A DNA stretch of 11,251 bases from Candidatus Zixiibacteriota bacterium. Its GTDB lineage: Bacteria; Zixibacteria; MSB-5A5; UBA10806; 4484-95. Shown piece by piece: positions 1,570-9,651 of the stretch. Each line of letters starts with the position of its first letter. Position 1 is the stretch's first letter. Location: assembly GCA_029932605.1 (NCBI GenBank), contig JAOZPT010000068.1, positions 1 through 11,251 on the forward strand. The letters run 5' to 3'. The translations under genes and the position numbers were made by a program. The notes below the pieces were generated by a model that was given only the letters and a program-made list of their open reading frames with translations, ran no database searches and was not told where the DNA came from.

Positions 1570-3369
1570 ATGAGGCTATCGATTAAGAAGATCACAGCGT
1601 GGATAATAGTTTTTTGTGCGGTGACATATTCGCAGAATATCCCCTCATCTCCACGAGAGGGGTTATATCAGGCGCTGGAGATTTATAGCTTGGGGAGATA
1701 CGAGGATGCTTATCTTATGTTCAAGTCTTTGTCTGAATTTTATGTTTTGGATGAACATCACTCAATTTTCAGATTTATGGCCGCCAAGTCGCTCTACAAA
1801 GCCGGTGATTTTGAAAAAGCTCGTCTGGAATTCGAACGTTTCTGTAAGGAATTTCCCGGTTCATCCTACATCAGCGCCGCCAATCTATATCTTGGCCATA
1901 TCGCCTACCTTAATGACAACCTCTACAAGAGCGCTTCCCGGTATCTCAAAGCTAACAACCTGGCTCCCAATTCCAAAGCCGGCGAAATCGCCGCCGATAA
2001 TCTGATACCTATGCTTGAGAATGAACTCTCTATCAATGAACTCTCCTCGTTAATCGATAACTATCCAAAATCAAACCTTGCTGGCGAAATCGTATATAAC
2101 TTAGGCAAAAGGCTCTTCGAACAGCAGAAATATAAGAGAGCAATCAGGCTGTTTGAAAAATACCTCGAAAATTACGTGCCAAGTAATCATAGCGCTGAGG
2201 TTAAGGAGTTGTTAAGCACATGTAAGGAAAACATCCATAACAAAGTAGTCATTGGTGTTCTTGCACCTCTTTCAGGCTCATTTGCTGATTATGGTCAAAG
2301 TCTGGTAGAGGGTGTAAAGCTTGTTTTTGAGGAAAATAATGAGATTAATGGAAAACGGGTGGAGTTGATTATCAAAGACACGAAAGGGTCACCGGTTTAT
2401 GCGACAATGGCTGTCAGTCAGCTTGCACTGGATGAACCCGTAGCGATAATCGGCCCGCTAAGGTCCGAATCGGCAGTAGGAGCTGCAGTAGTAGCCAGCT
2501 TTCACAATATTCCGATTATCACACCCACCGCCTCGGAAAGCGGAATAGCCAAACTTGGAGAGAATGTTTACCAGGTATCCCCACCAGCCGAGGTTATGGC
2601 TGTTACTATGGCTGAATATGCAGTAAATAAAATGGGTATCAAAGAATTCGGTATAATTGCTCCTGGCGACTTTACAGGAAGGCAGGTTTCTAAGGCTTTC
2701 ACCCAAAGAGTGTACCAGCTTGGCGGAGAGGTGTTATCCAATACATTTTATGAGACCGGGCAGGTGGATTTTACAAACCAGATCAAACCGTTGCGCGAGG
2801 TTTTATTGATGAAGACAGAGGAATTACTGGCTACCCAACAAATAGATTCAACCGAGTATTATGATTTTGAAAAGGAGGAATGGCTTGAACAGGATGACTG
2901 GCGAGTACATCTTGGCGGACTTTTCTTACCTGGTTATGCCGAAGAACTCTCTCTCCTGATACCTCAAATAAGATACCATGTCATTTCAACACAGTACTTG
3001 GGCTTGGATGGCTGGGATTCACCCAAACTTATAGGTAGCATCGAGCGCTATATACAGGGCTCGGTTTTCGCCACCGACTATCATCCCCTTTCTGAAAATA
3101 AGATTTGGAATGATTTTTATACGGAATTTTATAAAAAGTACAAGCACGAGTCCGATAGGGTTTCAGCTTTATCATATGATGTTGCAAATCTGATAAAAAT
3201 GGCTTTGGAGAATGGAGCGGATTCGGCTGAAGATGTCAACAGCTATCTTGGTTCGGTTGAATCTTATAACGGAACGGGTTGTACTATCAATTTCAAATCA
3301 ACCAATCATGCCAATAATTCGGTCGGTATATTCATTATTGAGGATAATACTATTAAAAAACTTAAATAA
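1570..3369 (+). CDS. Exported TPR + type 1 periplasmic-binding-fold protein (LpoA/LppC-like penicillin-binding-protein activator or ABC substrate-binding family)
   Basis: N-terminal signal-like segment (MRLSIKKITAWIIVFCAVTYSQ). BamD/YfiO-like TPR repeats (FPGSSY, YPKSNLA). Then IGVLAPLSGSFADYG, IIGPLRS, PIITPTAS, DFTNQI and ALSYD motifs of the LivK/LppC-type binding fold. Confidence 0.75.
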   Translation: MRLSIKKITAWIIVFCAVTYSQNIPSSPREGLYQALEIYSLGRYEDAYLMFKSLSEFYVLDEHHSIFRFMAAKSLYKAGDFEKARLEFERFCKEFPGSSYISAANLYLGHIAYLNDNLYKSASRYLKANNLAPNSKAGEIAADNLIPMLENELSINELSSLIDNYPKSNLAGEIVYNLGKRLFEQQKYKRAIRLFEKYLENYVPSNHSAEVKELLSTCKENIHNKVVIGVLAPLSGSFADYGQSLVEGVKLVFEENNEINGKRVELIIKDTKGSPVYATMAVSQLALDEPVAIIGPLRSESAVGAAVVASFHNIPIITPTASESGIAKLGENVYQVSPPAEVMAVTMAEYAVNKMGIKEFGIIAPGDFTGRQVSKAFTQRVYQLGGEVLSNTFYETGQVDFTNQIKPLREVLLMKTEELLATQQIDSTEYYDFEKEEWLEQDDWRVHLGGLFLPGYAEELSLLIPQIRYHVISTQYLGLDGWDSPKLIGSIERYIQGSVFATDYHPLSENKIWNDFYTEFYKKYKHESDRVSALSYDVANLIKMALENGADSAEDVNSYLGSVESYNGTGCTINFKSTNHANNSVGIFIIEDNTIKKLK

Positions 3370-4190
3370 TGCTTGATAAAGAGAAGAAACTGATAAATAT
3401 AATAAGACAACTTGGTTCGGTTGTTATAGGATTTTCCGGGGGAGTTGATTCAACTTTGATGGTGCACTTGTGTATCAAACATCTTGGTCTTAACGATGTC
3501 TGGGTTGTTACTGCCAATTCGAAATCGACTATGCCCGAGGAGATAAAGTTCTGTAAGAAAATGATGACCAAGATGGGTATTCCCAAAGACCACTTTACAA
3601 TCATTAATACAAATGAGCTTGATGACCAGAACTATACATCCAACCCTGAGAACCGATGTTATTTTTGCAGACGGGAACTTTTTGGTAAATTGAAAAAGTA
3701 TGCCCGAGAAGTGGGGGCTAAAAATATCGTTGATGGAAGCAATGCCTCCGATTTGACCGATTACCGTCCGGGTATGAAAGCTAAAAATGAATTTGAGGTC
3801 CGCTCGCCGCTTGCCGAAGCCGGTTTTACCAAAAGGGATGTCCGAAATCTGGCCAAGAGATCGGGCCTGACCAACTGGGATAAACCAGCAACACCCTGCT
3901 TGTCCTCGAGAATTCCATATCATTCAAAGATCACATTAAAAAAGCTCGAACAAATCGCTACTGCCGAGAGACTTTTAAAAAACCTGGGATTCAAACAGGT
4001 TAGAGTGAGACACCATGACCATATCGCCAGGCTGGAAATAGAGGATTTCGAACTACTGCTTAAAAACGGCATAAAAGAAAAAATAAACGAAAAATTAAAA
4101 AAGGCGGGATTTACTTACGTAGCCGTCGACCTGGGGGGATTTCGTTCAGGAAGTTTAAATGACGCCATCAAAGAAAAGAGGAAAAGATGA
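3369..4190 (+). CDS. larE: LarE-family ATP-dependent sulfur insertase (PP-loop), three-cysteine [4Fe-4S] type
   Basis: PP-loop SGGVDS, NPENRCYFC, DGSNASDLTDYRPG, SPLAE, WDKPATPCLSSRIPY, QVRVRHH and DLGGFRSGSLN are all LarE signatures. Start overlaps the upstream stop (TAATG, 3367-3371). Confidence 0.92.
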   Translation: MLDKEKKLINIIRQLGSVVIGFSGGVDSTLMVHLCIKHLGLNDVWVVTANSKSTMPEEIKFCKKMMTKMGIPKDHFTIINTNELDDQNYTSNPENRCYFCRRELFGKLKKYAREVGAKNIVDGSNASDLTDYRPGMKAKNEFEVRSPLAEAGFTKRDVRNLAKRSGLTNWDKPATPCLSSRIPYHSKITLKKLEQIATAERLLKNLGFKQVRVRHHDHIARLEIEDFELLLKNGIKEKINEKLKKAGFTYVAVDLGGFRSGSLNDAIKEKRKR

Positions 4191-4408
4191 CCGAAACCGG
4201 CAAGCGAGTAGCTCTAACAGTCACGGTTGGAGACCAGAAGCGTGAGATAACCTTCGATGAGCTTACCCTATCAAATAACTTTGCCCTTGAGGCTTTAGTC
4301 AAACTGCTCGTGGATAAAAAGATCATCGAGGTCAAGGAATTGCAGGAAATCATGAACAAAATCCGGAAGGAGCGCTATAAGGATCCTCCCAAAACCAATG
4401 CTGAATGA
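4187..4408 (+). CDS. Small hypothetical helical protein (73 aa)
   Basis: ATGA overlaps at both ends (4187-4190 and 4405-4408) and GAGGA at 4178-4182. Amphipathic helical pattern ALEALVKLLVDKKII..EL. Confidence 0.75.
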   Translation: MTETGKRVALTVTVGDQKREITFDELTLSNNFALEALVKLLVDKKIIEVKELQEIMNKIRKERYKDPPKTNAE

Positions 4409-4848
4409 ATATGGAAAAACTTACATGGGTTTCTCATCCAGCTAAGATCAGAAAAACCGCCACAATTATAGTGCTGTTGTTTATAGTGGCTATATTTATC
4501 GTGGTTTATTCAGTGACATACTCAATCTTAATGGTCATGCTGGCCGGATTTATTTTCCTGGGCACACTCTCGACATTTTTCTTTCCTACAAAATACGAAC
4601 TTACCAAGGATAAGATAAAAATAAAATATCTTGTCAACAGGGTTGAAAAGGAAATGAAAGTTTTTCGATCATACTATCCCGATAAAAATGGTGTATTGTT
4701 GTCGCCGTTCACGCGCCCCTCACGGTTGGAGAATTTCCGTGGCTTATATGTACGCTATCATCAAAATAAGGACGAGGTCGATTCCTTTATAAAAAAGATA
4801 TTCGAGGAAAGAAAATTTGAAGACAAAGAACAACTCCAAACCGAATAA
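4405..4848 (+). CDS. Hypothetical membrane protein (two TM helices + soluble beta-rich, possibly bacterial PH-like domain)
   Basis: Two hydrophobic segments (about aa 20-38 and 40-60), then FFPTKYELT..KIKIKY and GVLLSPFTRPSRLENFRGLYVRY. ATGA overlap with the upstream ORF. Confidence 0.8.
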   Translation: MNMEKLTWVSHPAKIRKTATIIVLLFIVAIFIVVYSVTYSILMVMLAGFIFLGTLSTFFFPTKYELTKDKIKIKYLVNRVEKEMKVFRSYYPDKNGVLLSPFTRPSRLENFRGLYVRYHQNKDEVDSFIKKIFEERKFEDKEQLQTE

Positions 4849-5299
4849 ATCCGCAGGTTCAGACGATACCAAACCAACACCTGAGGAGCAAGAATTAATA
4901 GACCGCGTGGCTAAGCTGGTTGTCCGCAAAGGGCTCACAGTGCCAGCAATCTTGTTTTTTGAAACAAGCAAACCATTGAACTGGATCGGCTCTCAGGGAA
5001 TGATTATCCTTGAACCATTTGTCTGGGCTATCAATCCTTTTCTTTACGCATTTTTCAGGTTAAAACACGAGGATTATTTAAAATTTCAGCGTCTCATAGA
5101 AAAACGCCATAACGTGGAGAACCTGCTTCTGGCTATAGAGAAATTTGACAGCCAGGCAAGAATTAAAGAAGATGAAATTCGCCGAGAGTTAAAAATCAAG
5201 AAAAAAGAGTTAAGAGCTAAAAGAAAAGCTAAGCGTCAAAAATTTTTAAGAAAACTTTTCGGAAGAGAAAAACCGGAAGACCTCGGAAAATCCCACTGA
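4817..5299 (+). CDS. Hypothetical protein with central hydrophobic region and highly basic C-terminal helix
   Basis: TTG start at 4817 with GAGGA at 4804-4808; 32-nt overlap with the upstream gene. Ordered-looking core LIDRVAKLVVRKGLTVPAILFFETSKPLNWIGSQ and a K/R-rich tail. Exact start uncertain. Confidence 0.78.
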   Translation: MKTKNNSKPNKSAGSDDTKPTPEEQELIDRVAKLVVRKGLTVPAILFFETSKPLNWIGSQGMIILEPFVWAINPFLYAFFRLKHEDYLKFQRLIEKRHNVENLLLAIEKFDSQARIKEDEIRRELKIKKKELRAKRKAKRQKFLRKLFGREKPEDLGKSH

Positions 5300-6691: not shown

Positions 6692-6869
6692 ATTCCTTTA
6701 AAGCTTTGATAATCGATTTTGTCAGACGCTCTCTTATCTTTTGCTCCTCAGAACCAACCGTAACATCAGCCCAGATTTCATCATATATCCTGTTTACCAG
6801 TTTCTTAATGAAATCGTCAAGCTCCTGCCCGGAGAACTCTATTGGCTTAAAATCATTCTTTTTCTTCAT
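6675..6869 (-). CDS. Small hypothetical protein (64 aa), probably leaderless first gene of the HD-HAD operon
   Basis: ATG-started ORF that fills the gap and overlaps the HD gene by 17 nt. Two amphipathic helices. A promoter is placed so that +1 is at or near the ATG. Confidence 0.65.
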   Translation of the reverse strand: MKKKNDFKPIEFSGQELDDFIKKLVNRIYDEIWADVTVGSEEQKIRERLTKSIIKALKEYAEYK

Positions 6870-6875
6870 ACTGAC

Positions 6876-6904
6876 ATAATATAGTTATTTTAAAAAAGGG
6901 TCAA
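6876..6904 (-). promoter_or_regulatory. Sigma70-type promoter TTGACC-N17-TATTAT
   Basis: On the minus strand, -35 TTGACC (6904-6899), 17-nt AT-rich spacer, -10 TATTAT (6881-6876). Each hexamer matches consensus at 5/6. Confidence 0.7.
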
Positions 6905-7005
6905 TAGAAATGTAACATAAAGGGTTAATAAGAAAATAGTTTATTTAAAAACGGGGTTTCTAAGCAAACTTCTTCTCTCTATCTAATTGCTCTATTAATC
7001 AACCT

Positions 7006-8301
7006 TTAAATATACTTATGTTCCTTGGCAAACTTCTCCAATTCTTCTCTAAACTGCGGCGCCGCTACATTAATAAGAGCTTTTGCTCTCTCCCTTACAG
7101 TTTTGCCATATAAATTAACAGCACCGTATTCTGTTACTATCCAGTGGACATCGGCACGAGTAGTTGTTACTCCGGTACCGGTAGGTATATAAGGTACGAC
7201 TCGTGAAACAGTTCCTTTCTTAGCCGTAGCGGGGAACGCTATAAACGGTTTTCCCCCTCTGGATTTTGCCGCACCTCGGACGAAATCCACCTGTCCACCA
7301 AATCCGGAATAAAACATGAAGCCAAGTGAATCAGAAAAAACCTGGCCTGTTAAGTCGATTCCCAGAGCTGAGTTGATTGACACCATCTTATCATTCTGGG
7401 CAATGACGAAAGGGTCGTTGGTATATTTACATGGGTGAAACTCAAAGATAGGATTATCATCGCAAAACTCGAAAATCTTTCTTGTGCCAAGGGTAAATGC
7501 AGCCACTATCTTGCCGGGGTGAAGGGTTTTCTTGGAATTATTAATCACCCCGCTTTCCACCAATGAAATTATACCATCGGAGAACATCTCAGTATGAATG
7601 CCCATATCCTTTCGCCCCTCAAGAGCAAACAGGAAAGCGTCAGGGATAGCTCCGATACCCATCTGCAGTGTAGAACCATCCTCAATATTGTCAGCTATTA
7701 ACTTGCCAATCTTCATGGAGACCTCATCCGGTGTTCCCTGTGGCATCTCTAAAAGCGGGGCATCATGTTCAACTACGTGGGTCAACTTACTCACATGTAT
7801 AAAACAATCACCATGAACCCGTGGCATTTGAGGATTAACCTGAGCAATGACAGTCTTGGCGCAATGAGCAGCTGACATTGTGATGTCAACACCTACCCCA
7901 AATGAGCAAAACCCATGTTCATCTGGCGGGCTAACCTGAATAAGTACAACATCGATAGGAAGCTGACCTGATAACCATAAATTTTCTACCTCCCCAAGAA
8001 AGATATGAGTTTGGTCTGCGCGTCCTTCATTTACAGCCTGACGCACATTTTTTCCTATAAACAGAGACCTATGCCTGAAATGACCTTCCATACCCGGCTG
8101 GGCATAGGCAGCCTTTCCCTCAGTAAGAATATGAGTGACGGTTACATTTTCCAGCTCATCCTTACGTGCTACCATGGCATCAACAAGATACTCGGGGGTA
8201 CAGCAACCGGGATGAATATAAACTGTGTCGCCTGACTTTATCGACTTTGCCGCCTCCTCAGCAGTAGTTCTTTTACTATGATAAAAGTCAATCCACTTCA
8301 T
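7006..8301 (-). CDS. Acetyl-CoA hydrolase/transferase family (4-hydroxybutyrate CoA-transferase-like) family I CoA-transferase
   Basis: VSPPDEHGFCSFG, NPQMPR, TLQMGIGAIPDA, catalytic-Glu motif GIHTEMFSDG, SGFGGQVDFVRGA, VTTTRADVHWIVTEYG. The acyl substrate cannot be determined from motifs. Confidence 0.93.
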   Translation of the reverse strand: MKWIDFYHSKRTTAEEAAKSIKSGDTVYIHPGCCTPEYLVDAMVARKDELENVTVTHILTEGKAAYAQPGMEGHFRHRSLFIGKNVRQAVNEGRADQTHIFLGEVENLWLSGQLPIDVVLIQVSPPDEHGFCSFGVGVDITMSAAHCAKTVIAQVNPQMPRVHGDCFIHVSKLTHVVEHDAPLLEMPQGTPDEVSMKIGKLIADNIEDGSTLQMGIGAIPDAFLFALEGRKDMGIHTEMFSDGIISLVESGVINNSKKTLHPGKIVAAFTLGTRKIFEFCDDNPIFEFHPCKYTNDPFVIAQNDKMVSINSALGIDLTGQVFSDSLGFMFYSGFGGQVDFVRGAAKSRGGKPFIAFPATAKKGTVSRVVPYIPTGTGVTTTRADVHWIVTEYGAVNLYGKTVRERAKALINVAAPQFREELEKFAKEHKYI

Positions 8302-9431
8302 CTCGCACCCCCGGTTTTCAAAATATTCTTGAGCGATTTAGCCTTAATCCCCAGCTTGTTTGCTATCACCTGCTTAAGAAGTTCACCCTGATAGCTATAA
8401 AGTCCCTTCGCCAGCCCATAGTCACTCTGTATTGCCTTTTCAAACCCAACCTCGGCTATCAGGTAAACATACGGTAAAATAGAATTAGACAATGCATAGG
8501 TCGCTGTGCGGCTGATGTTTGACGGCATATTGGGGACACAAAAATGAATCACATTATGCTTAATAAACGTGGCATTAGCCCAGTTGGTTGGACGGGAGGT
8601 CTCAACACATCCCCCCTGGTCGATTGAGGCATCGATAATCACCGACCTGGGCTTCATAGACTTTACCATTTCCTCGGTGATCAACTTAGGCGGTTCCTCG
8701 CCATGAATCAAAATTGCTCCAACCAACACATCAGCAATCGGCACAGCCTTTTCGAGGTTATATTCAAAGGGTAAATATGTAACAAGCTGTCTGTTGAATA
8801 ACTCATTAGCGTGCCGGAGCTTATTTATATCGTTATCGAATAATATTACATTACAACCCAATCCCTTAACCGCTCTGACAGCATTCATTCCAAGTGTTCC
8901 TGCACCTACAACCAATACCGTTGCAGGTGGAACCCCGGCACCACCACCCAAAAGTATACCTCGACCACCACCGCTGTTGGACAGGTAGTAGCTTGCAATG
9001 CCTGCGCACATTTGGCCTGCCAGACCCGACATCGACACCACGACCGGCAAGCCACCATCATCATCTTCGATGATCTCATAACCAACAGCGGAAATCTTCC
9101 TCTCCAACAATAGCTTTACGCTTTCCTCAGGAGCCACTGCCAGATGGAACGCCGTTAACACTATCTGATCCGGTGGCATCATCTTGTATTCCTCAATGGT
9201 CGGTGGTGCAACCTTCAAAAGCAGCTTTGAACGCAGAAATATCTCCTCAGTTGAATAAACAAGTTTTGCACCTACCTCAAGGTAATTCTCATCGGTGAAA
9301 CCTGACCCTTCACCAGCACCCTGCTCCAGATAAACATTATGGCTGGCTTTAACAAGTGTCTTAACACCGGCAGGAGTAAGCGCCACCCTGTTCTCAAGAT
9401 GATGACCTTCCTTAGCTATCCCTATATCCAT
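8298..9431 (-). CDS. Alanine dehydrogenase-like protein (AlaDH/PNT family) with a divergent substrate site
   Basis: ENRVALTPAGV, GAGEGSGFTD, GGRGILLGG, Rossmann VVGAGTLG, IDASIDQGGCVETSRPT and CVPNMP are present. KVAPP replaces KVKEP, so the ald symbol is withheld. SD GAGGAG at 9443-9438. ATGA overlap with the CoA-transferase. Confidence 0.88.
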   Translation of the reverse strand: MDIGIAKEGHHLENRVALTPAGVKTLVKASHNVYLEQGAGEGSGFTDENYLEVGAKLVYSTEEIFLRSKLLLKVAPPTIEEYKMMPPDQIVLTAFHLAVAPEESVKLLLERKISAVGYEIIEDDDGGLPVVVSMSGLAGQMCAGIASYYLSNSGGGRGILLGGGAGVPPATVLVVGAGTLGMNAVRAVKGLGCNVILFDNDINKLRHANELFNRQLVTYLPFEYNLEKAVPIADVLVGAILIHGEEPPKLITEEMVKSMKPRSVIIDASIDQGGCVETSRPTNWANATFIKHNVIHFCVPNMPSNISRTATYALSNSILPYVYLIAEVGFEKAIQSDYGLAKGLYSYQGELLKQVIANKLGIKAKSLKNILKTGGAR

Positions 9432-9507
9432 AATTATCTCCTCTTTAAGTTGGCCTTATCAGTATATTAAATCAAATTATTATAAATATGCAATGAAATC
9501 AAGTATT

Positions 9508-9525
9508 ATGTGAAACAAATCACGA
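9508..9525. promoter_or_regulatory. Candidate Rex (or CRP-family) operator upstream of the Ald-like/CoA-transferase operon
   Basis: ATGTGAA-ACAA-ATCACGA matches TTGTGAA-N4-TTCACAA at 11/14 positions and TGTGA-N6-TCACA at 9/10. Lies about 77 nt upstream of the start codon, near a minus-strand TATAAT (9484-9479). Confidence 0.55.
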
Positions 9526-9651
9526 AATATTATTATCCCAAAGACAGATTTACTACAAAGAAAAGATTATGTATTTTTTCAATATCAAATTGAGATTTCA
9601 ATAGCACAGGCTCATGACTTACAATTCAGGAGAACTGCTATGCGCCTAACT

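Follow-up and report, generated by a model that had tools for sequence, protein, structure and literature searches.

The window analysed here is a stretch of 11,251 nucleotides that makes up positions 1 to 11,251 of contig JAOZPT010000068.1 (assembly GCA_029932605.1, Candidatus Zixiibacteriota bacterium), and the features of interest within it are two co-oriented genes and the DNA ahead of them (Table 1). The first gene encodes an alanine-dehydrogenase-like protein (hereafter ADLP) with the Pfam domains AlaDh_PNT_N (PF05222, 2.4e-36) and AlaDh_PNT_C (PF01262, 1.2e-65), and the second a CoA-transferase (CoAT) with the domains AcetylCoA_hydro (PF02550) and AcetylCoA_hyd_C (PF13336). The original prediction placed an ATGA overlap between the two open reading frames and regarded the pair as set off by intergenic gaps on either side, both of which are confirmed, the overlap being read on the minus strand. 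Upstream, 220 nt (9432-9651) separate the pair from secF; downstream, 314 nt (6692-7005) separate it from an HD-domain gene with a promoter-like site of its own. The same 4-nt overlap is found in 16 of 24 related loci (the broken locus L024 being excluded), a recurrence that puts it beyond chance. Moreover, the relatives displayed have G-rich runs at the same place before the CoAT start codon as the Shine-Dalgarno-like run of the window.

Table 1. Positions of the genes, sequence motifs and regulatory features at the ADLP-CoAT locus.
Feature	Position in window	Strand	Basis or remark
CoAT gene, class I (4-hydroxybutyrate / butyryl-CoA:acetate type) CoA-transferase, 431 aa	7006..8301	-	ORF; Pfam; PDB match
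Glu238 codon of HTEM (residues 236-239), predicted catalytic glutamate	7588..7590	-	invariant in CoAT alignment
CoAT loop SPPDEHG, residues 124-130, identical to TtCoAT loop 120-126	7912..7932	-	
ATGA, ADLP stop overlapping CoAT start	8298..8301	-	plus strand reads tcat
ADLP gene, alanine-dehydrogenase-like, 377 aa, Lys75-less	8298..9431	-	ORF; Pfam
GGGGG, Shine-Dalgarno-like run, 7-11 nt before CoAT ATG, within ADLP 3' end	8308..8312	-	
DQGG, residues 271-274, nicotinamide-ribose contacts	8610..8621	-	
Asp199 codon (in ILFDND, 196-201), acidic end of second Rossmann strand, adenine-ribose contact	8835..8837	-	
GAGTLG dinucleotide-binding loop, residues 176-181	8889..8906	-	G176, G178, G181 invariant in homologue alignment
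Ala75 codon, place of catalytic Lys of KVKEP	9207..9209	-	alignment to 2vhw; = Ala77 of TtADLP
Arg67 codon, aligned to TtADLP interface residue Arg69	9231..9233	-	ungapped alignment to 9vae_A
AGAGGAG, Shine-Dalgarno, 6 nt ahead of ADLP ATG	9438..9444	-	read from sequence
Promoter-like site TTCACA, 18 nt, CATATT	9485..9514	-	consensus match only
Rex-type palindrome TGTGA-N6-TCACG	9509..9524	.	93 nt upstream of ADLP ATG

Over residues 1-364 the ADLP aligns with the canonical alanine dehydrogenase (AlaDH) of M. tuberculosis, Ald (PDB 2vhw; 312 bits), with which it shares the two-domain AlaDH/PNT fold throughout and the Rossmann motifs. Its score against the alanine dehydrogenase equivalog model TIGR00518, however, is 372.6 bits, under the cut-off of 391.85, and in the alignment to 2vhw the KVKEP motif of the canonical enzyme reads KVAPP in the window protein. 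In other words, the degeneracy of the substrate site that had been proposed consists specifically in the replacement of Lys75 by Ala and of Glu76 by Pro, while Arg15, His96 and Asp271 stay. Each of 29 canonical AlaDHs carries both Lys75 and Glu76, whereas all 41 CoAT-adjacent homologues lack them and have A, S, F or R instead. Twelve further positions that are invariant in the canonical enzymes also differ in the window ADLP and are relaxed among its CoAT-adjacent homologues. The NAD-binding parts, on the other hand, are intact as claimed, with GAGTLG, the Asp of ILFDND and DQGG all in place, and among the best 120 homologues Ser135, Asp199 and Asp271 are each found in 120 and Gln272 in 112.

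These features could also belong to an active NAD-dependent dehydrogenase with a substrate other than alanine, maybe an acid that the CoAT makes or consumes, such that the two genes would encode two steps of one pathway. The AlaDH/PNT fold hosts other reactions, the NAD site is fully retained, and the gene is under strong purifying selection (dN/dS 0.02-0.10 for pairs with dS < 1.2); a different catalytic activity is conceivable, moreover, because Arg15, His96 and Asp271 are kept. We nevertheless consider such an enzyme quite unlikely, given the uniform loss of Lys75 and Glu76 in favour of unlike residues and the relaxation of the twelve other positions. His96 is itself missing from six CoAT-adjacent members of the phylum (L119, L120, L127, L128, L129 and L131), and the ADLP of Thermus thermophilus (TtADLP), which is described below, is inactive on pyruvate and all 20 amino acids and binds no CoAT substrate (bioRxiv 10.1101/2025.10.31.685773).

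In a tree built without TtADLP, the canonical AlaDHs group into a single clade (100*), and the window ADLP lies outside it. Holding all Lys75-less proteins together gives a tree that is 9.9 lnL units better than that of the free search (p-AU 0.764), and a single clade of CoAT-adjacent ADLPs, a group defined after the tree had been seen, is 26.4 lnL units lower (p-AU 0.103), a score that leaves such a clade neither supported nor excluded. Lys75-less look-alikes of AlaDH make up 70 of the best 150 cluster representatives at 50% identity. As regards the genome itself, which is 99.96% complete, a search for a separate KVKEP-type ald gene returned no second member of the AlaDH family, and the window gene is the only one. 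The expectation that automated pipelines would label such proteins as ald is borne out, since, of the best 120 homologues, the 48 that have a name are without exception called alanine dehydrogenase or L-alanine dehydrogenase, and Lys75 occurs in none of the 120.

The best PDB match of the window CoAT is the T. thermophilus enzyme TtCoAT (9vag/9wns/9wnu) at 514.7 bits, the next scoring 455. Against TIGR03948 it reaches 318.6 bits, below the cut-off of 674.8, and for that reason no substrate is assigned to it. The HTEM motif is retained, as the original prediction had it; its Glu238, which we take to be the catalytic glutamate of the CoA-transferase family, is invariant in the CoAT alignment, as is the G215-I216-G217 stretch of the G(V/I)G loop. 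Here too dN/dS is low (0.02-0.055 for pairs with dS < 1.2).

The natural point of comparison is a pair of proteins from T. thermophilus HB27, whose description in a recent preprint substantiates the earlier mention of an inactive AlaDH-like regulator of a CoA-transferase in that organism (bioRxiv 10.1101/2025.10.31.685773). In this pair the ADLP (TT_C1082), in which the catalytic Lys is replaced by Ala77, is without AlaDH activity and has affinity for NAD+ as well as NADH; it associates in a complex with the CoAT (TT_C1083), whose activity it inhibits only in the presence of NAD+ (structures 9vae, 9vag, 9wns and 9wnu; 10.1101/2025.10.31.685773). Cryo-EM places TtCoAT loop 120-126 inside the ADLP cleft, with Glu2, Arg69 and Arg88 as contacts, and the NAD contacts named for TtADLP are Ser136, Asp199, Asp270 and Gln271 (10.1101/2025.10.31.685773). 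Acetylation of Lys5 of TtCoAT relieves the inhibition, a feature which the preprint confines to Thermus (10.1101/2025.10.31.685773).

Much of this finds a counterpart in the window. Both ADLPs have the AlaDH fold with Ala in place of the catalytic Lys, and in both organisms the ADLP gene adjoins, and is co-oriented with, that of a class I CoAT of the 4-hydroxybutyrate type. The NAD contacts correspond to S135, D199, D271 and Q272 of the window protein (the Thermus numbering being matched by motif position), alongside the GAGTLG loop, and the cleft-entering SPPDEHG loop is identical in the two CoATs. Within a 45-aa segment around Ala75, TtADLP (9vae_A/9wns_A) scores 23.3 bits (E 3.7e-4) and canonical AlaDHs at most 15.6 bits; the alignment to 9vae_A is ungapped at an offset of +2, such that Ala75 falls on Ala77 and Arg67 on the interface residue Arg69. 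All 41 CoAT-adjacent homologues have an Arg at the position of Arg67, as do 5 of 29 canonical AlaDHs; 24 of the 32 remaining Lys75-less proteins have a gap there. Taken at the level of sequence, the window pair is supported as having the features of the Thermus system, namely the lost Lys, the NAD site, a co-transcribed TtCoAT-like CoAT and the interface Arg.

The SPPDEHG loop was also considered as a signature of partnership with an ADLP, and was rejected as such. It is near-invariant in 42 ADLP-adjacent CoATs and differs only in distant paralogues (~35% identity), and it offers no evidence of co-adaptation, because it is equally kept in the CoAT orthologues of two relatives, G027 and G040, in which the ADLP is absent. 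Two attempts to raise TtADLP above canonical AlaDHs by other queries likewise failed: a profile of CoAT-adjacent ADLPs gave 444 bits for canonical AlaDHs and 362 for TtADLP, and with a Chloroflexota ADLP as query TtADLP again stayed below. TtADLP comes first only when the query is limited to the 45 aa that surround the lost catalytic site.

The two systems also differ in several respects. They belong to different phyla, the close homologues of the window ADLP being labelled Zixibacteria; the window ADLP has 377 aa at full length against 345 aa for chain 9vae_A; the window genes overlap by 4 nt; and Thermus has a canonical AlaDH paralogue, TT_C1770, whereas the window genome is without one. At the interface, Arg88 of TtADLP aligns with Pro86, and residue 2 of the window ADLP is Asp. 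In the window CoAT, Ser9 stands where TtCoAT has its acetylated Lys5, but the acetylation site does not define the wider family, since the preprint confines it to Thermus.

Such differences bear on whether the window ADLP might bind its CoAT by a logic other than that of Thermus, acting as an activator, as a sensor of NADH or as a plain scaffold or stabiliser. In this regard, conservation is demonstrable for only one of the three named TtADLP contacts, the window CoAT lacks the acetylation site, and the pair is distant from the Thermus one, canonical AlaDHs scoring higher (312 bits) than TtADLP (250.6 bits) against the full-length window protein. Yet all of the NAD contacts named in the preprint are retained, the cleft-entering loop is the same in both CoATs, and a Rex-type operator on the operon, discussed below, points the same way, towards an enzyme that is active when the cell is reduced. 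A different logic is, on this evidence, unlikely.

The association of the two genes extends well beyond the window. Among 41 relatives, the CoAT gene lies directly downstream of ADLP in 25 of the 25 ADLP loci found; in a sample of 201 genomes of the phylum, 34 contain the pair, and the order of ADLP then CoAT holds in 15 of 15 further loci. For other phyla, a survey with a 14-row alignment as query yielded 80 loci, a sample of more than 600 matches, in which CoAT adjoins 18 of 51 Lys75-less loci and 0 of 29 canonical ald loci, and the pair occurs in Ignavibacteriota, Kryptoniota and Chloroflexota. Adjacency is conserved in other genomes, therefore, as the original prediction required; as for the proposed test of a Lys75-less clade that co-localises with CoA-transferase genes, the Lys75-less proteins are compatible with one group, and 32 of the 51 loci outside the phylum have no neighbouring CoAT. 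An equation of Lys75-less proteins with CoAT partners is accordingly too broad for this sample of the matches. The look-alikes have at least two further conserved contexts: in Bacteroidota, with PorX-like/TsaE genes, and in Aminicenantes-type genomes, with NuoE/F/G-like flavoproteins.

Within the relatives, G012 (98% complete) gave no match to either the ADLP or the CoAT query, and in G001 both genes are broken by frameshifts or stops; this joint decay was not counted as evidence, as it could equally reflect indel error in an assembly of 10 contigs. Distances between ADLPs and between CoATs are correlated in a mirror-tree comparison (r 0.80, 53 pairs, with 0 of 999 permutations as high), a value to which no weight is given for binding, because co-inherited neighbours would show such a correlation anyway.

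Neighbouring genes often do not interact, and the two might in principle be merely co-transcribed, with no physical or regulatory link between their products. This is, however, highly improbable, given that within the phylum the ADLP is never found without an adjoining CoAT at any of the loci counted above, that the adjacency recurs in three other phyla, and that the 4-nt overlap is conserved. The Thermus pair, moreover, forms a measured complex (10.1101/2025.10.31.685773).

What is new here is a predicted Rex-type operator upstream of the ADLP-CoAT operon, the Thermus preprint containing 0 occurrences of Rex. The site in the window has 9 of the 10 core bases, with two mismatches to the 12 specified bases of TTGTGA-N6-TCACAA, and one half of the palindrome is the -35 hexamer TTCACA of the promoter-like site. 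Sites with at least 9 of 10 core bases occur at the orthologous position in 18 of 23 relatives of the order, eight of them perfect over the whole 18-mer; the 6,657 nt ahead of the ADLP genes contain 19 such sites, and the remaining 85,341 nt of the same loci 0. The whole genome has 54 sites at this threshold. It also has a rex gene (C8:24157-24798; NF003993, 251.3 bits, cut-off 217), and 20 nt ahead of that gene stands the one perfect TTGTGA-N6-TCACAA of the genome. Outside the order, a Rex-type site was found at 1 of 29 canonical loci and at none of the 32 remaining CoAT-adjacent or the 34 remaining Lys75-less loci; within the genome, the two hbd-like loci and the two ETF loci have none nearby.

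In clostridia, Rex represses genes of butyrate and alcohol pathways. The arrangement in the window resembles the Rex regulons of anaerobes in that a palindrome of the TTGTGA-N6-TCACAA type lies on the predicted -35 element of a short-chain acyl-CoA operon, and in that rex has a perfect site of its own. It differs in that the window site is imperfect and in that the operator fronts a CoA-transferase with its own predicted sensor of NAD+ at the level of protein.

By analogy with Thermus, the window ADLP probably lacks catalytic activity and acts as an NAD(H)-binding partner that attaches to the CoAT and inhibits it in the presence of NAD+. In such a mechanism an ADLP hexamer would bind CoAT dimers, and NAD+ would hold the ADLP open, such that the SPPDEHG loop of the CoAT could enter the former substrate cleft and lock the enzyme; NADH would relieve the lock. 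In this Zixibacteria order, Rex would additionally repress the operon at low NADH, and both layers would then turn the CoAT on in the reduced cell. More tentatively, and with rather more doubt than confidence, the whole may be drawn as two stacked switches, in which Rex silences the promoter at low NADH and the ADLP clamps the CoAT at high NAD+, with the only 'alanine dehydrogenase' of the genome not being one and with the Lys75-less look-alikes forming a large, consistently misnamed family whose other contexts may denote other partners.

As judged from its sequence, the Zixibacteria pair is a further member of the known ADLP-CoAT system, and a mode of CoA-transferase control that has only just been described would thereby be extended from Thermus to this pair. 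The preprint states of the pair that its 'distribution appears limited' (10.1101/2025.10.31.685773), whereas the loci counted above show a much wider occurrence of the gene pair. For the organism, metabolic reconstructions would wrongly credit the genome with the interconversion of alanine and pyruvate, because the named homologues of the window protein are called alanine dehydrogenase and yet the genome has no true one. The conserved Rex-type operator, for its part, suggests that a single enzyme is subject to redox sensing at two levels, transcription and protein.

The window pair, whose alanine-dehydrogenase-like protein (ADLP) is P0001 and whose class I CoA-transferase (CoAT) is P0002, has the arrangement claimed for it in the original prediction, with the stop codon of P0001 overlapping the start of P0002 in an ATGA at 8298-8301 and with a gap on either side, of 220 nt upstream, after secD/secF, and of 314 nt downstream, before an HD-domain gene, which has a promoter-like site of its own, and a HAD hydrolase gene. 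The motifs read there are likewise present, GAGTLG at residues 176-181, ILFDND at 196-201 and DQGG at 271-274 of P0001, and HTEM at 236-239 of P0002. P0001 aligns to Mycobacterium tuberculosis Ald (2vhw) with 312 bits over residues 1-364, and the KVKEP of 2vhw is KVAPP in P0001. In other words, Lys75 and Glu76 are both lost, bearing out the degenerate substrate site that had been proposed, while Arg15, His96 and Asp271 are retained. On the alaDH equivalog model, P0001 scores 372.6 bits, under the cut-off of 391.85. Elsewhere in the window, 4405-5299 holds two overlapping plus-strand ORFs, one of 147 aa with hydrophobic stretches and one of 160 aa with a Lys/Arg-rich tail, neither with a Pfam match.

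Features of the ADLP-CoAT locus
Feature	Position	Strand	Description
P0001 (ADLP) ORF, 377 aa	8298-9431	minus	AlaDH/PNT, both domains
P0002 (CoAT) ORF, 431 aa	7006-8301	minus	acetyl-CoA hydrolase/transferase, both domains
Rex-type palindrome	9509-9524		9/10 bases of TGTGA-N6-TCACA; 93 nt upstream of ADLP start

The Thermus report invoked in the original prediction exists as a bioRxiv preprint (Yoshida et al., 31 Oct 2025, 10.1101/2025.10.31.685773). According to the preprint, TT_C1083 (TtCoAT) is a short-chain acyl-CoA transferase, its gene adjoins that of TT_C1082 (TtADLP), and the two proteins co-purify. TtADLP has Ala77 at the position of the catalytic Lys, a residue which the authors report missing from every protein of the ADLP clade, and is inactive on pyruvate and on all 20 amino acids; it binds both NAD+ and NADH, and inhibits TtCoAT only in the NAD+-bound state. 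By cryo-EM, the Thermus ADLP hexamer carries one to three CoAT dimers, with TtCoAT loop 120-126 within the ADLP inter-domain cleft and TtCoAT Asp123-His125 touching TtADLP Glu2, Arg69 and Arg88. The preprint already notes the system in further phyla.

The best PDB match of the window CoAT is TtCoAT (9vag/9wns/9wnu, 514.7 bits; next entry 455), and the loop SPPDEHG is identical in the two. This loop was ruled out as a sign of ADLP-CoAT co-adaptation, on which it is uninformative, since it is also retained in CoAT orthologues without an ADLP. Full-length window ADLP matches TtADLP (9vae_A/9wns_A) with 250.6 bits, below the 312 bits of canonical AlaDHs, and a profile of CoAT-adjacent ADLPs gives 362 against 444 bits, such that TtADLP is a divergent, shorter relative. 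In the dead-site segment, residues 56-100 of P0001 (45 aa), the top match is TtADLP (23.3 bits, E 3.7e-4), canonical proteins reaching at most 15.6 bits, and with an ungapped offset of +2 the window Ala75 and Arg67 correspond to TtADLP Ala77 and Arg69. The interface Arg88 is not kept, the window having Pro86 there, and the acetylation site Lys5 of TtCoAT is Ser9 in the window CoAT, which fits the preprint's remark that the acetylation layer is confined to Thermus. Judged by sequence, the window pair belongs to the ADLP-CoAT system as a representative from Zixibacteria, the system itself being already described, other phyla included; the sequence had been read correctly and the right precedent named.

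The window genome (2.53 Mb, 99.96% complete) gave no second AlaDH-family gene in protein and family searches, and hence no separate canonical ald, for which a check had been proposed. It does contain two genes of the 3-hydroxyacyl-CoA dehydrogenase type and two with ETF domains, indicating short-chain acyl-CoA metabolism. Among the best 120 homologues (50-99% identity), several of them labelled Zixibacteria, none has Lys75, the 117 that can be read at position 67 all have Arg67, and S135, D199 and D271 are kept in every one. Source names are attached to 48, every one of them (L-)alanine dehydrogenase, as had been foreseen of automated pipelines.

Across 41 related genomes, the window's own included, a CoAT lies directly downstream of the ADLP in 25 of 25 ADLP-type loci, an adjacency whose absence elsewhere the original prediction had listed among its refuting conditions; 16 of 24 loci share the 4-nt overlap. 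Position 75 is F (13), A (5), S (3) or R (2), and never K, in the 23 readable loci, which leave out L024 (broken) and L025 (cut by a contig start). In L024 (G001:C6:161228-164866) both frames are broken by two frameshifts each, the ADLP also having stop codons; the two genes may have decayed together, or the 10-contig assembly may contain indel errors. In a 201-genome phylum sample, 34 genomes from only five families have an AlaDH-family gene, one apiece, and the 15 additional loci, those outside the set examined before, are all Lys75-less and followed by a CoAT, with Arg67 in 14 of 14 readable. G027 and G040 have a CoAT without an ADLP, in each case (L112, L113) with a fused 2-oxoacid:ferredoxin oxidoreductase gene (TPP_enzyme_C + POR) directly upstream of it; the reverse was not seen in the phylum loci examined, and G012 (98% complete) matched neither query. 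For pairs with dS <1.2, dN/dS is 0.02-0.10 in ADLP and 0.02-0.055 in CoAT, such that the look-alike is constrained as much as the enzyme. P0001, with Arg15, His96 and Asp271 all present, may, less probably, have some other catalytic activity, but His96 has gone from several CoAT-adjacent relatives. These ADLPs of the phylum are L119, L120, L127, L128, L129 and L131, two of which, L129 and L131, have VAQGG in place of DQGG. In these proteins the NAD site, or at least its nicotinamide-ribose contact, may be degenerating further.

A wider scan (one genome per species; some flanks shortened by contig ends) listed 80 loci among its matches. KVKE[PY] occurs in 29, none with a CoAT within 3-kb flanks; Lys75 is missing from 51, of which 18 are immediately followed by a co-oriented CoAT gene (Ignavibacteriota, Melioribacteraceae, Kryptoniota, Chloroflexota, one Bacteroidota MAG and one Bacillota MAG), 32 have none and one ends at a contig edge. 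In a 91-row IQ-TREE phylogeny with a PntA outgroup, canonical AlaDHs form a single clade (support 100) and the window ADLP falls within a 7-row clade of its own order (100), the backbone of the Lys75-less lineages being weakly supported. A tree constrained to keep all Lys75-less rows together improved on the unconstrained search by 9.9 lnL (p-AU 0.764), whereas the 26 CoAT-adjacent rows alone, a group defined after the tree was viewed, came out 26.4 lnL worse (p-AU 0.103). The CoAT partnership may therefore have one origin or several, and a general co-localisation of Lys75-less proteins with CoAT, as had been envisaged, is too broad, the neighbour being absent from those 32 loci. All 41 CoAT-adjacent proteins have Arg67, against 5 of 29 canonical ones, while 24 of the 32 remaining Lys75-less proteins have a gap there, and twelve more (near-)invariant canonical positions are relaxed besides Lys75 and Glu76, a pattern consistent with the former catalytic site having been lost and an interface gained.

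One Lys75-less clade (99, 28 rows), of Bacteroidota with one Rhodothermota and one Chlorobiota row, has members of ~407 aa with K[VI][EA]PP and no CoAT nearby. In its five scanned loci (L046, L047, L079, L094, L102; gene match at about 2900-4120) a TsaE gene is directly upstream in all five, and beyond it lies a PglZ-domain response regulator (PorX-like) in 4/4 scanned (L046, L047, L079, L094); another partner or role seems likely for this clade. In L041, L042 and L044 (Aminicenantes/Eubacteriales MAGs), Lys75-less AlaDH-like genes with VLNISPL (about 3000-4110) are immediately followed by NuoE-, NuoF- and NuoG-like genes, called by Pfam in L041 and L044 and by matching ORF layout in L042, giving the dead-site fold a further setting in which NAD(H) is handled.

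Upstream of the window pair, a promoter-like site has one half of the palindrome as its -35 hexamer. The window copy has two mismatches to TTGTGA-N6-TCACAA; at the orthologous place at least 9/10 bases occur in 18 of 23 relatives of the order and 10/10 in eleven, TTGTGA-N6-TCACAA being perfect in eight. The order's sites, in the window and among L002-L022, lie about 91-141 nt upstream of the operon. The 6,657 nt that precede ADLP genes contain 19 sites of at least 9/10 and the remaining 85,341 nt of these loci none, the window genome having 54 in total. Its sole perfect 18-mer (G000:C8:24818) precedes its own rex gene by 20 nt (251.3 bits on NF003993, cut-off 217), and Rex is above cut-off in 39 of the 41 relatives. 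The palindrome may instead be read by a CRP/FNR-type regulator. A search for the Rex-type site in front of 32 further CoAT-adjacent ADLP genes, from outside the order, found none, and Rex goes unmentioned in the preprint.

What the analysis adds is the breadth of the ADLP-CoAT pair and its systematic mis-naming, the invariance of a predicted interface arginine (Arg67), and a lineage-specific, putative Rex-type operator, which would stack transcriptional redox control on the predicted protein-level NAD+ switch of the CoAT.
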